NCBI GenBank assembly: GCA_043744215.1
Contig: JAYTVC010000049.1
Location: 1,051 to 65,050 of the forward strand
Direction: 5' to 3'
Origin: Pseudomonadota bacterium
GTDB taxonomy: Bacteria > Pseudomonadota > Gammaproteobacteria > Burkholderiales > JBEEJL01
DNA: 64,000 nucleotides
In this document: positions 6,884-45,797 of the stretch, in pieces
Numbering within the stretch: the first letter of the stretch is position 1
Layout: each line of letters starts with the position of its first letter
Position numbers and translations under genes: made by a program
Notes under the pieces: generated by a model
Databases searched by the model: none
The model's input: the letters and a program-made list of their open reading frames with translations, nothing else
Told to the model about the DNA's origin: nothing

Positions 6884-8650
6884 ATGTTTAGTGTAGAAGT
6901 GATTAAAAGCGGTAAGACCATCTTTTCTGCCGAATGCGCGAATGATGCGTGCGTTCTGGGACGCGATAACAATGCCTTCTTCGTGCTAAAAGGTTGGATG
7001 ATTGGTAAGCAGCAGATCAAGCTAAGCATGCAAAAAGGGGACGTGTTTGTGGAAGACGGCGGTGGCATCACCGGCCTTTTCGTCAACGGCAAATCCATCA
7101 ACCGTTACGGCCCTTTGCATGCGACCGATGTGATCGAAATTGCCGACTATAAAATCCGGGCGTATGCGGCGGAGTCGTTCGCCAAACCGCAAAAGAACGA
7201 AAGCAAACTATCAGGTTTGGCGGAATCTAACAACGCAGACAATCCCAATCAACCGAAAGCGAATCCCATTCAATCAGGGAGCCAGGAGCGCGGCGAAGTA
7301 CATTTGGTGGATACAGCCTCGGGTATTGCGCTGCGGTTACGTATACATAAAAAACTGATTGAAATGATGGACTTACGTAGGGTTAACGTCGCTCGTATGA
7401 GCGATGAAGAATTGCGACAAAGTGTCAGCACCCTGATCGATGAAATCATCACAGCAGATTCCAGCTTCCGTGAATTTCAAGGCGCGCGCGAAGATTTACG
7501 AGATTGCGTATTGAACGAAGTGGTAGGGCTTGGCCCGTTAGAGAGTTTGCTTGCTGATGAAAGCGTTACTGAAGTAATGGTAAATCGATACAACGACATT
7601 TTTATTGAAAAAAATGGCAAGCTGATGCGCTCATCCATCAGCTTTTCCAACGACGCTGCAGTGCTGTCGGCCATTGAGCGGATTGTCGCTCCGTTAGGCC
7701 GCCGCATTGACGAGAGTTCACCGATGGTTGATGCGCGCTTGAAAGATGGCTCCCGCGTCAATGCCATTATTCCGCCCCTGGCCATCAAAGGGCCTTGCAT
7801 TACCATCCGTAAATTTTCCCGGCGTCGTTTGCACGATGCAGATTTGCTCAAGTTCGGTTCCATCTCCCGCGAAATGCTTTTGTTCATGAGAATGTCCGTT
7901 GAGCAGCGTGCCAATGTGGTGATTTCAGGCGGCACAGGCTCCGGCAAAACCACTTTGTTGAATGTATTATCGAATTACATCCCTGATGACGAACGCATCG
8001 TGACAGTAGAAGATGCCGCTGAATTACAATTGAACCAACCCAATCTGGTTTCCCTCGAAGCACGCCCGGCAAACATCGAAGGGCGTGGTGCCGTTCCAAT
8101 CCGTGATCTGGTCAAAAACTGTTTACGTATGCGACCGGATCGTATCGTGGTCGGCGAGTGTCGTGGCGGCGAAGCGCTGGATATGTTGCAGGCCATGAAC
8201 ACTGGCCACGACGGTTCGCTCACTACCGCCCACGCCAATACGCCCCGTGATTGCCTCTCGCGTTTGGAAGTGATGGCGCTGATGTCCGGTTTGGATATTC
8301 CGATTTCCGCCATCCGCGATCAGGTGGCATCGGCAGTCGATATTATTATTCAACAGACGCGTTTTTCCTGCGGCAGCCGTCGGGTGACGCACATTTCTGA
8401 AGTCGTCGGCATGGAGCAAGGAACGATTCAATTGCAAGACATATTCCTGTTTAAGCAAAATGGTTTCGGGGCCGATGGAAAAATCCGTGGTGAATACGTG
8501 GCTACCGGCCATATTCCCGATTTCTATCACAACCTGATGGAGCGCGGTCTTGAAGTGGATATTTCCATTTTCCACAACAACACCGTAAAACCGGTGATAA
8601 AACCTGAAGCTAGTGCGGAATTGAACCAGGAAGTGAGGGCCGTTGCATGA
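6884..8650 (+). CDS. cpaF: CpaF/TadA secretion ATPase with N-terminal FHA-like domain
   Basis: Walker A is GGTGSGKTT, Walker B-like is DRIVVGECRG, and the His box is GHDGSLTTAHAN. An N-terminal extension of about 100 aa (CVLGRDNN...LFVNGKSINRYGPLHATDVIEIADYKIR) looks like an FHA fold. Confidence 0.85.
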   Translation: MFSVEVIKSGKTIFSAECANDACVLGRDNNAFFVLKGWMIGKQQIKLSMQKGDVFVEDGGGITGLFVNGKSINRYGPLHATDVIEIADYKIRAYAAESFAKPQKNESKLSGLAESNNADNPNQPKANPIQSGSQERGEVHLVDTASGIALRLRIHKKLIEMMDLRRVNVARMSDEELRQSVSTLIDEIITADSSFREFQGAREDLRDCVLNEVVGLGPLESLLADESVTEVMVNRYNDIFIEKNGKLMRSSISFSNDAAVLSAIERIVAPLGRRIDESSPMVDARLKDGSRVNAIIPPLAIKGPCITIRKFSRRRLHDADLLKFGSISREMLLFMRMSVEQRANVVISGGTGSGKTTLLNVLSNYIPDDERIVTVEDAAELQLNQPNLVSLEARPANIEGRGAVPIRDLVKNCLRMRPDRIVVGECRGGEALDMLQAMNTGHDGSLTTAHANTPRDCLSRLEVMALMSGLDIPISAIRDQVASAVDIIIQQTRFSCGSRRVTHISEVVGMEQGTIQLQDIFLFKQNGFGADGKIRGEYVATGHIPDFYHNLMERGLEVDISIFHNNTVKPVIKPEASAELNQEVRAVA

Positions 8651-35820: not shown

Positions 35821-35898
35821 GTAGGATGGGCAAAGCGATAGCGTGCCCATCATGTACTTAAAAAAACGATGGGCACGCTATCGCTTTGCCCATCCTAC
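35821..35898. repeat. REP-like hairpin (family A) with perfect 31-bp arms
   Basis: gtaggatgggcaaagcgatagcgtgcccatc - 16-nt loop - gatgggcacgctatcgctttgcccatcctac. It lies between convergent genes and may also act as a terminator. Confidence 0.85.
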
Positions 35899-35913
35899 GA
35901 AAAGGAAGTTACA

Positions 35914-35940
35914 TAACTAATTGATTATATTGAATAATTT
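35914..35940 (+). repeat. 27-bp AT-rich intergenic motif copy
   Basis: taactaattgattatattgaataattt. The complement AATCAATTAGTTA matches WATCAANNNNTTR. Confidence 0.6.
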
Positions 35941-35945
35941 AGCAT

Positions 35946-37190
35946 TTACCCAAGCGAATATTTTTTCGCCGACGCCACATACCAAATCAATCCCAATACC
36001 TGCAACGCAAAGCAAATCGCAAACGCTGCGCGATAACCTTCGAGGGCATAAGCGTTCGCCGTTGCCGGCCACAAGTTAATTATGGCGCCCATGGCCCATT
36101 GCGTGATGAACGCAAACACGAAGACGAGCAAATTGATGGCCGTATTCACGCGCCCCGACAGCGACACATCGAATGCCGGTGTGAGAATGGAATACGACAG
36201 CGAACTGGCCGCGCCACAAAAGCCGACGACGCCCCACGCCAATAACGATTCGGGAAACCACTGGAACGCGATGCCGCTCCAGGCCAGCAAAATCAGCAAA
36301 GCATTAACGGAATACAATTTTGCCGGGGAGAAGCCGCGTTTCGCCAATGCCGTTGCCAGCGTACCCGACGTAAATTGTCCGGCAAACATGGCGCAGGCCA
36401 TCACGAAAAGATATTGGGCGATTTCTGCCCGCGACAAATGCGCCACGTCGCGCAAATAGGGTGCAGCCCACAATCCTTGTATCGACATGAATACAGCCTG
36501 TATAAAAATTGCCAACGGCGCGATACGCCAGAATTTTCCACTGGCGAAAATATTCATAGCGCCACGAATTTGCGCTTTCAACGTCACGCCACCATGGGCA
36601 ATATTTTTTTCCGGATAGACAAAAAATATCAGCGCCGCGACAAATAGCGTGGCGGCACCCAGCCCGATAAACAAACTGTGCCAATCGGTCACGCGCAGCA
36701 ACGCTTCCACGGGAACCGTGGACGTGAGCGCGCCGAGCCCACCCGATGCCAGCACAAAACCGTTCATGGCGGGCAGACGGTGCGGTGGAAACCATTGGGT
36801 AAATGCCTTGAATGCCGCCATCAAACACGCCGACACACCGAGGCCGATCAGCGCGCGACCGACGAGCAAGCCGGTCAAGCTATGGCTCAAACCGAAGATC
36901 AGCGCGCCAATCGCGGCGATAACCAGCAAGCCCGCTTCAACACGCCGTGGGCCATAACGATCAAGCAACACGCCGAGGGGAAATTGAAAACATGCGAACG
37001 CCAAAAAATACGCGCTGGTGAGCAAACCGAGGCTCGTCGCGTCCAGCCCCAAATCCGTTGTGAGGTTGGGCGAGATAACCGCGTTAATGGTGCGATATAA
37101 ATAAGAAAGAAAATAACCGCAGGCGAAAGGAATGAAAATGCGAGCGAGGAGGGTAGTGGTAATAGGTGGCGCAGCAGCGGTTTCAGGCAT
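35946..37190 (-). CDS. MFS transporter
   Basis: It has about 12 predicted hydrophobic helices and an MFS loop motif (GVLLDRYGPRR). Confidence 0.8.
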   Translation of the reverse strand: MPETAAAPPITTTLLARIFIPFACGYFLSYLYRTINAVISPNLTTDLGLDATSLGLLTSAYFLAFACFQFPLGVLLDRYGPRRVEAGLLVIAAIGALIFGLSHSLTGLLVGRALIGLGVSACLMAAFKAFTQWFPPHRLPAMNGFVLASGGLGALTSTVPVEALLRVTDWHSLFIGLGAATLFVAALIFFVYPEKNIAHGGVTLKAQIRGAMNIFASGKFWRIAPLAIFIQAVFMSIQGLWAAPYLRDVAHLSRAEIAQYLFVMACAMFAGQFTSGTLATALAKRGFSPAKLYSVNALLILLAWSGIAFQWFPESLLAWGVVGFCGAASSLSYSILTPAFDVSLSGRVNTAINLLVFVFAFITQWAMGAIINLWPATANAYALEGYRAAFAICFALQVLGLIWYVASAKKYSLG

Positions 37191-37352
37191 TGGGCGGGGG
37201 TATCCCGAATTTTCTGTATTTGGATTTTGCAGGGCGAGGTTAAAGCGATCTTCGAATGAGTCACCAACTGAGTCGTGGCTTGTTTCCTATTCTGCATCGG
37301 CATTGTCCGCCGTTGAGTGATATTGCGCAAACCTGGATAAATCAACGCGTAG

Positions 37353-37425
37353 GTCGGGAATCCTTTCCCGACAAATGGTTCTGTGATCGCTGAGGCTAAT
37401 GTCGACAAGGGATTGCCGACCTACA
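37353..37425. repeat. 73-bp double-hairpin REP unit (left direct-repeat copy)
   Basis: gtcgggaatcctttcccgac...gtcgacaagggattgccgacctaca. It is about 89% identical (8 mismatches by my count) to 38423-38495 in the same orientation. Confidence 0.8.
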
Positions 37426-37509
37426 GAGGCTTCAAAACCCCAAATGAGTTATTCTTCGCTTAACCTTTGTTGCACTTTGAAATTGAATCCGCCACTGGTG
37501 CCCTTCGTT

Positions 37510-38196
37510 TTAGTCTCCACCTTCAGTATAATAATCATACAGTTTTCGCCATTTAACTCCATCACAATAAAAAGCAAAGGTATTGCTGCCCCCATACAAG
37601 AAAAAAGAATCGTGATCAAGACGGGGCATAAGTCTTTCTGAGCGCACCCAATACTTGGTACCCTGAAGCTCTTGATCCTTCGCCTCCTCGTCACTGGGTT
37701 TTTTTCGTAATTGTGCCAATGACTTTCGCGTTTCCGATGGCCCCTTAACTTTAAGAAGCGACCCGTAGTGATCGTCCGTGGAGTCCCGCTCTTTCCAAAA
37801 GCTTGAAATTTCGTTGAAATTAATTACGCTGGCACACTTCTTGGATCCACCCCAAACAATATGGAAGTATTCTTTTTTGGTTGATACCGACATACAAAGT
37901 ACCTGCAAATCTTTTTGCCCTCGTACCGCAAACTCACCACGAGCGAGTACAAGGTAGTCTTTTTCATCGGGCTTACCAGAGACGATCTTCCTGTAGTCAG
38001 GGTCATTCTGATCCCTATAGGACGTCACCAAGCATCCAGAACCGTCCAATTGAAAAATTTCTTCATTTGTTAACTGAGCAACTTTTACGGGATTCCAATA
38101 AAATTTTTCGGCTCCAGGCGTCTTTGCTAACGAGGGTGAGCTGATAAAAAAAGCTGATAAAGTCCCTAAGATAATACGCTTTGTAAAAACAGTCAT
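37510..38196 (-). CDS. Orphan exported protein carried by the IR-bounded cassette
   Basis: A 228-aa ORF with a strong RBS (aaggaag, 8 nt upstream of the ATG) and a signal peptide (SPSLA|KT). I recognise no family. Confidence 0.6.
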   Translation of the reverse strand: MTVFTKRIILGTLSAFFISSPSLAKTPGAEKFYWNPVKVAQLTNEEIFQLDGSGCLVTSYRDQNDPDYRKIVSGKPDEKDYLVLARGEFAVRGQKDLQVLCMSVSTKKEYFHIVWGGSKKCASVINFNEISSFWKERDSTDDHYGSLLKVKGPSETRKSLAQLRKKPSDEEAKDQELQGTKYWVRSERLMPRLDHDSFFLYGGSNTFAFYCDGVKWRKLYDYYTEGGD

Positions 38197-38317
38197 ATCG
38201 GTTACTTCCTTCTTGTTATTAACTCAGTATATCCGCCCAGATATTCTGCGCCCAAGTCTAGCAGGATGCGCCCTCTACTTCGCTGCACTCTGCTGATATG
38301 CCGCCGCTGCCATCAAC

Positions 38318-38327
38318 GGGGGGGGGG
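38318..38327. repeat. G10 homopolymeric tract
   Basis: There are ten consecutive G (C10 on the coding strand of the cassette ORF). The tract abuts IR-R, about 125 bp upstream of the ORF start. Confidence 0.9.
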
Positions 38328-38422
38328 ATTCAATTTCAAAGTGCAACAAAGGTTAAACGAAGAATAACTCATTTGGGATTTTGAAGCTTAGCGTTTTCCG
38401 TGACCGTTGATTCAGTGCATTT

Positions 38423-38495
38423 GTCGGGAATCCTTTCCCGACAAATAATTCGGTGATCAATGAGGCTGACGTCGGCAAGGGATTGCCGACCTACA
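38423..38495. repeat. 73-bp double-hairpin REP unit (right direct-repeat copy)
   Basis: See 37353-37425. A third copy of the gtcggcaa(a/g)ggattgccgacctaca hairpin lies at about 45685-45708. Confidence 0.8.
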
Positions 38496-38538
38496 ACGGC
38501 TGAACTGTAGTGCGCAAACACGCCGCCACGCAACAGGT

Positions 38539-38987: not shown

Positions 38988-39024
38988 AAATAAATTTGAT
39001 TATTGTTAATCGTCTATTTATGCA

Positions 39025-39147
39025 CCGTCATTCCCGCGCAGGCGGGAATCCAGCAAAATAAAAAATTTTCACATTTTGTTATTGATGTGAAATTTGTACC
39101 AATGCTTATTCAAAAACACTGGATTCCCGCCTGCGCGGGAATGACGG
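39025..39147. repeat. MITE/REP-like element (family C) with ATTCCCGCG-N-CGGGAAT hairpin arms
   Basis: The arms are ccgtcattcccgcgcaggcgggaatccag and ctggattcccgcctgcgcgggaatgacgg, inverted around a 65-bp AT-rich spacer. A second, diverged copy lies at 57466-57596. Confidence 0.8.
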
Positions 39148-39179
39148 TGAGTAAAACTTCGTATTTTGCTAATGAAGCA

Positions 39180-39935: not shown

Positions 39936-40030
39936 GCACTTTCCTTTTGCGGGAATGAATTTTGAATGGGGATATTGTCACATAGCTGACGTGATGTGAC
40001 CTACAAAAACTTGCGGGGTAATTTTTTGTT

Positions 40031-40061
40031 GATGGGCACGCTGTCGCTTTGCCCATCCTAC
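40031..40061. repeat. REP family A half-element
   Basis: gatgggcacgctgtcgctttgcccatcctac is a single arm of the 35821-35898 hairpin family. Confidence 0.75.
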
Positions 40062-45579: not shown

Positions 45580-45667
45580 GTAGGTCAGGTTGCGGCGCGG
45601 TTTTTTGCGACGTTACCTGACAGAGCACATAAGGAAAGTCAGGTAGCCTTTCGGCAACCTGACCTAC
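45580..45667. repeat. REP family D composite (inverted pair)
   Basis: gtaggtcaggttgc...gcaacctgacctac. The first 44 bp repeat 44235-44277. Confidence 0.8.
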
Positions 45668-45708
45668 ACATTTCAAGTGCTGCGTCGGCAAAGGATTGCC
45701 GACCTACA

Positions 45709-45797
45709 AAATCACAAATCATAAATCACAAATCACAAATCACAAATCACAAATCACAAATCACAAATCACAAATCACAAATCACAAATCACAAATC
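45709..45797. repeat. Heptanucleotide tandem repeat (AAATCAC)n, 12 full units plus 5 nt
   Basis: I counted the units directly. The second unit is AAATCAT and the rest are identical. The array runs into the TAG stop (45797-45799, minus strand) of the GST gene. Confidence 0.95.

Follow-up and report, generated by a model that had tools for sequence, protein, structure and literature searches.

A lone gene enclosed by long inverted repeats, which lies in the spacer between a thioesterase gene and an MFS gene, is probably (at roughly 60%) part of a decayed and immobilised islet flanked by IS30-family copies; in the simplest case, the islet would be a composite transposon whose two IS copies are inverted. 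The window, as the whole stretch of DNA that was analysed is called here, measures 64,000 nt. According to this model, the gene would have stood between two copies of one IS, each turning its right (inside) end to it, and the islet would have carried this gene, which encodes a secreted protein, into the spacer between thioesterase and MFS in the window's lineage. The bodies and the outer ends of both IS copies would later have been deleted separately, leaving 62 and ~92 nt, and the deletion junctions would now lie at resident REPINs (Table 1). With neither a transposase nor outward-facing ends, the islet is immobile. A DR-IR-gene-IR-DR layout that seems unclassifiable thereby becomes a familiar one, in which an acquired gene was stranded after the flanking IS30 copies decayed. 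So read, the locus is a commonplace relic of horizontal gene transfer among host REP repeats, neither a new kind of mobile element nor a switch, and it is a new example made of known ingredients: the debris of IS30 copies, REPINs and a cargo gene that is orphan-like.

Table 1. Features of the islet and of its borders, in window positions.
Feature	Position	Strand	Description
12-nt direct repeat, left copy	37321..37332	+	TATTGCGCAAAC; outside all other features
REPIN-L	37342..37431	+	two inverted GTAG-tagged REP hairpins, 26-nt spacer; GTAG at 37349, CTAC ending 37424
Left IS30-family right-end remnant	37429..37490	+	last transposase codons (..FKTPNELFFA, stop) and terminal inverted repeat GTTGCACTTTGAAATTGAATCC
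ORF	37510..38196	-	228 aa, ATG start; predicted secreted protein of a rare uncharacterised family
ORF upstream region inside the islet	38197..38325	-	129 bp; RBS AGGAAG
Right IS30-family right-end remnant	38326..38417	-	~92 nt; ..ALNQRSRKTLSFKIPNELFFV, stop, then terminal inverted repeat
REPIN-R	38412..38501	+	same orientation as REPIN-L; CTAC ends 38494
12-nt direct repeat, right copy	38508..38519	+	TAGTGCGCAAAC; 1 mismatch to the left copy

The arms of the inverted repeat (37429-37493 and 38323-38387) extend over 65 nt with 95% complementarity, and alignment of their 62-nt core (37429-37490 and 38326-38387) gives 96.8% identity, that is, the two mismatches reported when the arms were noticed by a sequence-only reading of the window as 62-bp near-perfect inverted repeats. 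Nothing like this arm pair was matched in shuffled sequence (0 matches, n=100). The outer edge of the arm reads GCTTCAAAAC.., and only 38326-38387 of the right remnant is shared with the left arm. IS-derived sequence runs ~30 nt past the right arm (38388-38417) and not past the left arm, which makes the repeat asymmetric, with 62 nt kept on the left and ~92 nt on the right. The GTDB representative genomes and a metagenome collection were scanned with the inner-arm 20-mer GTTGCACTTTGAAATTGAAT. This 20-mer ends IS30-family elements or remnants in contigs L005, L007, L008, L017, L019, L021 and L022, where it sits 3' of the end of an IS30-family transposase gene, both in betaproteobacterial MAGs including Nitrosomonas (L005, L007, L008, L022) and, likewise, in metagenome contigs (L017, L019, L021); examples of the transposase 3' ends that precede it are ..RKVLGFRTPFEVFFGKTVRYTRSPLGVAL, followed by the stop codon, and ..RKCLGFKTPHEVF... 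A complete element is found in L017, with a 343-aa transposase that matches NF033563 ('IS30 family transposase', E=1.4e-75) and 25-bp terminal inverted repeats at 1139-1163 and 2290-2314 that include the arm 20-mer, and the transposase fragment of L005 also matches NF033563. When nine such ends are aligned, the 20 terminal nt are invariant, GTTGCACTTTGAAATTGAAT(C/T)C, and in the same alignment the outer part of the window arms pairs with transposase codons for FKTPxEVFF. Read in the transposase frame, the left arm gives the residues and stop codon listed in Table 1, and translation of the right arm together with the 30 nt beyond the repeat gives ..ALNQRSRKTLSFKIPNELFFV and a stop codon, in which 11/19 residues are identical to LNHRPRKVLGFRTPFEVFF of the L005 IS30 transposase (BLASTP, E=9e-7). 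Of the transposase gene, no more than these ~20 C-terminal codons are left.

Based on the terminus alignment and the C-terminus match, the arms are assigned as right-end (IRR) remnants of two 97%-identical IS30-family copies. Each arm almost certainly comprises the 3' end of an IS30-family transposase gene and the right terminal repeat of the IS, and each carries an IRR-type terminal repeat of the 20-30 bp class that is common to family members. The parent IS was not found at full length in the window, in the GTDB representatives or in the metagenome collection. Similarly, a paired copy of the arms was found neither among the GTDB representative genomes nor in the metagenome collection, and no further arm copy occurs elsewhere in the 64-kb window. 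The extended right arm had no match among plasmids (blastn), and two patterns derived from the inverted repeat gave 0 matches in viral contigs. The duplication of one pre-truncated remnant, with an internal deletion and a truncation point common to both arms, was considered and was rejected in view of the intact short C-terminus and the longer right remnant; the translated ends indicate that the parent IS simply has a short transposase C-terminus. As a separate observation, right ends of this IS30-family group that stand alone and carry decayed transposase 3' ends are common among betaproteobacterial MAGs, those of Nitrosomonas included (L005 2307-2786, L007 about 7000-7428, L008 7729-8000, L018 about 480-548, L021 907-956), and in L018 the IS terminus lies 13 nt from a GTAG-REP.

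The orientation of these ends determines how the locus is to be read. The IS termini, at ~37490 and ~38326, point inward, toward the ORF. Since the transposase stop codon precedes the terminus, the two termini face each other across the ORF, and the ORF is therefore flanking DNA for both remnants; a transposase acting on these ends would see the gene as flank, not as cargo. Judged from the translated frame, the outer arm edges are truncation points within the transposase reading frame instead of element termini, and the difference in retained length (62 vs ~92 nt) implies that the two copies were truncated separately. A tblastn search with the IS30 transposase fragment found no transposase in the 64 kb, in agreement with the absence noted earlier; with no transposase ORF there and with the left ends absent, the window holds no intact autonomous IS30 element. 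Two copies of one IS around a cargo gene, as in a composite transposon, are represented by the inverted, 97%-identical right-end remnants, whereas outside ends and a target duplication are absent, the outside ends having been deleted. A TSD of 2 bp is the norm for the IS30 family (PMC5821093), and since the locus has lost the outer IS ends along with their 2-3-bp duplications, transposition as a composite unit is inferred rather than shown.

Insertion into the spacer is supported by synteny and by composition. In relatives whose thioesterases are 81-86% identical (L009-L016), the gene order of AMP-ligase, SDR, amidase, SDR, thioesterase, MFS, CoA-transferase and acyl-CoA dehydrogenases is kept, and the thioesterase-MFS spacer measures 48, 90 or 315 bp, in comparison to 1,348 bp in the window. 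None of the L009-L016 spacers contains the ORF, the arms, or IS or REP sequence of the window kind. The segment is thus absent from the same site in these relatives, and the synteny comparison at this junction that had been proposed as a check reveals empty sites, which are not base-precise given the divergence of the relatives' thioesterases (81-88% aa identity). For the closest thioesterase relatives (88% identity), the contigs are too short or too diverged for a base-precise empty site. The interior had been described as AT-richer than its surroundings, and its GC content of 0.45 (37491-38325) against a window mean of 0.52 confirms this, placing it in the lowest 3% of 835-bp windows. In addition, GC3 of the ORF is 0.42, in comparison to 0.53-0.69 in the neighbouring genes. 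Together, the empty sites and the deviant GC3 support the view that the window's lineage acquired the segment horizontally. In some relatives, the thioesterase-MFS spacer contains unrelated small palindromic repeats of the CCCTTCCC...GGGAGGG type (L016 5427-5741, L025 778-900), and for this reason the spacer appears to accumulate small repeats again and again.

The gene itself begins with an ATG that is preceded by AGGAAG at a distance of 8 nt, consistent with the well-formed minus-strand ORF and RBS seen at first reading. Its hydrophobic N-terminus (..SSPSLA/KT) is Sec-signal-like, as the previously suggested signal peptide would require, and residues 1-27 have low pLDDT. A consensus sigma-70 promoter was not detected in the upstream region that lies inside the islet. 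Scans of the ORF against Pfam, NCBIfam, PHROGs and PADLOC returned no family, so that its description as a protein of no recognisable family holds, and the ORF is the sole member of its 90% cluster. A HMMER scan of 1.84 billion representatives retrieved 16 relatives, 11 of them at E<1e-10, and a profile search retrieved 15. These relatives are about 225 aa long, begin with a signal-peptide-like stretch and share conserved positions for Cys, Trp and Gly. The AlphaFold2 model of the ORF is a mixed alpha/beta fold (mean pLDDT 79.7, pTM 0.75), for which Foldseek gave no match in the PDB at E<=0.001. No homologue of the ORF was found by tblastn in plasmid and phage collections. The family is real but very rare, with 15-16 clusters in public data, and its members are predicted to be secreted proteins; the cargo is of interest for this rarity and for a fold that is confidently predicted and has no counterpart in the PDB. 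The genomic contexts of the homologues are unrelated to that of the window. Homologue genes directly follow one that encodes an 11,475-aa protein, with DUF3467 and GAF/HlyD-like (BSH_CzcB) genes coming next; in another lineage, they follow the gene of a 764-aa WD40 protein. Flanking inverted repeats or IS30 ends were not found at the examined homologues, which indicates that the repeats belong to the locus and not to the gene family. The homologue loci (L027 1-8687, L030 95-4781, L028 1596-6226) may provide a clue to the function of the protein.

The direct repeats outside the arms are 90 nt long and 83% identical, with a 73-nt core (37353-37425 and 38423-38495) that is 89% identical, as expected from the two same-orientation 73-bp copies of about 89% identity recognised in the sequence-only reading. 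Each unit forms a hairpin with 25-nt arms around the spacer, and each of these arms is itself a hairpin with an 8-bp stem (for example, GTAGGTCGGGAATCCTTTCCCGAC ... GTCGACAAGGGATTGCCGACCTAC). The inverted, GTAG-tagged hairpins and the short spacer substantiate the earlier description of these repeats as REP units. The GTAG tag is present in three of the four REPs, at 37349, 37424(-) and 38494(-), and is lost at 38419 in the left REP of REPIN-R (CATTTGTCGGG..). By their sequence, the direct repeats are classified as REPINs, that is, GTAG-tagged REP doublets. GTAG is the defining REP tag (PMC3733652), and a REPIN is a doublet of REPs that is thought to be mobilised by RAYTs (PMC3337134). The window units share inverted hairpins, GTAG/CTAC, a short spacer and an intergenic site with the REPINs and GTAG REP doublets of these studies, and differ from them in that one of four REPs has no GTAG. 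About 2.5 copies of this REP type (GTAGGTCGG(G/C)AATCC) are present in the 64 kb, along with other GTAG-REP families; further doublets at 35821-35898, 40004-40061 and 45580-45709 are intergenic and belong to at least two other sequence families. The genome appears to host several REP/REPIN families, and these doublets are resident host repeats. Two additional repeats of the window were recorded: a tandem array of the heptamer AAATCAC (45710-45797, about 12 copies) directly downstream of the GTAG-REP cluster at 45580-45709, and, between the thioesterase and SDR genes, a pair of 37-nt inverted repeats (39017-39155, 95%) with ATTCCCGCGCAGGCGGGAAT cores, whose palindromes form a family distinct from GTAG-REPs.

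Each IS remnant has a REPIN at its truncation point, and the two REPINs point the same way, an arrangement that the simple composite-transposon model does not predict. The presence of REPINs at both IS truncation junctions is a hint that REP hairpins shape IS decay. Additionally, the 8-mer AATCAACG at 37340-37347 corresponds to the N-Q-R codons of the right remnant (38408-38415, minus strand), with P about 0.02 from a search that was chosen after inspection and gives a lead, not proof. This shared 8-mer, to the left of REPIN-L, suggests that the REPIN may interrupt the left IS remnant instead of bordering it.

Among known systems, the closest comparison is with derivatives of Tn6330 (ISApl1-mcr-1-ISApl1), many of which have lost one or both ISApl1 copies, while some keep the last 42 or 90 bp of ISApl1 with an intact IRR (PMC5821093). 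The window locus shares with these derivatives the IS30-family copies around a cargo, the loss of the IS bodies, the retention of tens of bp of the right end and the immobilisation of the gene. The retained right ends are also of similar scale, with 42 or 90 bp in Tn6330 derivatives and 62 and about 92 nt in the window. In Tn6330, however, the IS copies are direct repeats and the kept IRR is an outside end, whereas the copies in the window are inverted and the inside ends alone are kept. Here, the cargo is an uncharacterised secreted protein of an environmental betaproteobacterium, and REPINs occupy both truncation junctions, which represents a further difference. The geometry of inverted IS copies with inside ends toward the cargo is that of Tn5 and Tn10; these belong to the IS4 family and not to IS30, and the window has lost the outside ends and both transposase genes.

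One further feature does not follow from the composite-transposon model. A 12-nt direct repeat brackets the entire REPIN-to-REPIN unit, and because IS30-family duplications measure 2-3 bp, it is not an IS30-type duplication and is left unexplained by the main model; a target-site duplication and a microhomology are candidate origins. The repeat's P value of about 0.007 by shuffling (about 0.015 for the exact 9-mer within it) comes from searches chosen after inspection, and is to be taken as a lead and not as proof. The repeat raises the alternative that the whole 1.18-kb unit moved as one, with the REPINs serving as IS200/IS605-type ends for a RAYT, or, in a variant, that an unknown transposase made a 9-12-bp duplication; in either case, the IS30 remnants would be passengers from the donor site. 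This alternative, which is unlikely, would be in line with the single TTTGCGCAA in the thioesterase-MFS spacer of L009 and with the GTAG-proximal REP stems lying 16 and 13-16 nt from the 12-nt repeat. Single-strand Y1 transposases (IS200/IS605) require directly oriented ends, and the REPINs are indeed in direct orientation. Against it, IS200/IS605-type transposition produces no target duplication. Moreover, identity is only 83-89% between the REPINs as against 97% between the IS arms, a weak RAYT probe gave no match in the window, and we know of no second copy of the REPIN-to-REPIN unit. It is quite improbable that the unit at 37333-38507 is a mobile cassette that carried the gene and the IS debris into a TTGCGCAAAC site by means of a RAYT-like single-strand transposase or another enzyme; if true, REPINs would here be seen for the first time to mobilise a protein-coding gene. 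Two related schemes, a 90-bp target duplication of the REPIN and a Campbell-type integration via REPIN homology, were rejected on the basis of the same identities (REPINs 83-89% vs arms 97%) and of the outer 12-nt repeat, which is out of register.

It is also unlikely that the arms act as a switch, either through inversion of the segment between the 62-bp repeats or, at the RNA level, through a 62-bp duplex serving to clamp or process the transcript. A length of 62 bp at 97% identity suffices for RecA-dependent inversion, and the repeats are thus long enough for it. No recombinase gene is located nearby, the neighbours encoding MFS, thioesterase, SDR, amidase and CoA-transferase proteins, and an inversion would not uncouple the promoter: the 129-bp upstream region of the ORF lies inside the segment, so that inversion would have no obvious regulatory effect. 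The locus therefore offers neither the adjacent recombinase nor the change of partner on inversion that define an invertible switch. Regarding the RNA duplex, the ORF and its flanking genes are all on the minus strand, read-through from the thioesterase gene is conceivable, and the arms are predicted to form one long helix when a 1.19-kb RNA is folded in silico, although this stem forms only where one transcript spans both arms. On the minus strand, the DNA upstream of the right arm yielded no sigma-70-like promoter, and the Rfam scan gave no family, only a sub-threshold snoRNA-like match. For both forms of the switch, the arms are already accounted for as IS debris, and the homologues of the ORF do without such repeats. 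Passive inversion between the arms is conceivable but unsupported, and so is an RNA stem formed when transcripts read through both. Under the composite-transposon model the arms have no designed function, and can still undergo rare RecA-dependent inversion and pair in a read-through transcript.

The sequence-only reading had also considered the insertion of a non-autonomous element with a passenger gene. The mobile origin and the insertion stand, given the empty sites and the foreign composition, but the terminal-inverted-repeat form of the element does not, as the termini point inward. Such a MITE-like element would be bounded by the 62-bp repeats, would carry the ORF as a passenger and would be mobilised in trans, and this is very unlikely here. 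The arms do derive from a transposable element, with an intact-looking 25-bp IS30-family terminal repeat, and the segment is missing in relatives. A TIR element or MITE, however, needs its termini at the outer ends, which is the opposite of the geometry of the window, where the outer arm edges fall in transposase coding sequence at a different position on each side. Furthermore, no target duplication abuts the arms, no other copies occur in the window, and no paired copies were found in the GTDB representatives or the metagenome collection. The resemblance to MITEs is limited to IS-derived terminal repeats without a transposase; the inward termini (37490 and 38326), the carried gene, and the target duplication and other copies that were not found set the locus apart. 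In this case, the direction of the termini is enough to tell a fossil composite transposon and a MITE-like element apart. For genome scans, the lesson is that long inverted repeats around a lone gene should be compared with IS ends and the direction of the terminus read.

Finally, a chimeric join through the repeats in a draft or MAG assembly is the least probable origin of the layout. The independent Logan contig for the MFS gene (L033) matches 35870-37375 with full identity and ends within the REP at 37375, as a multi-copy repeat would lead one to expect; it carries no information on orientation and leaves the junctions beyond without independent confirmation. Against an artefact, the two REPINs disagree at 11-17% of positions and the two arms at 2, which renders the paths distinguishable by k-mers, the arms continue straight into unique sequence, and truncated IS ends beside REPs are common in other genomes.
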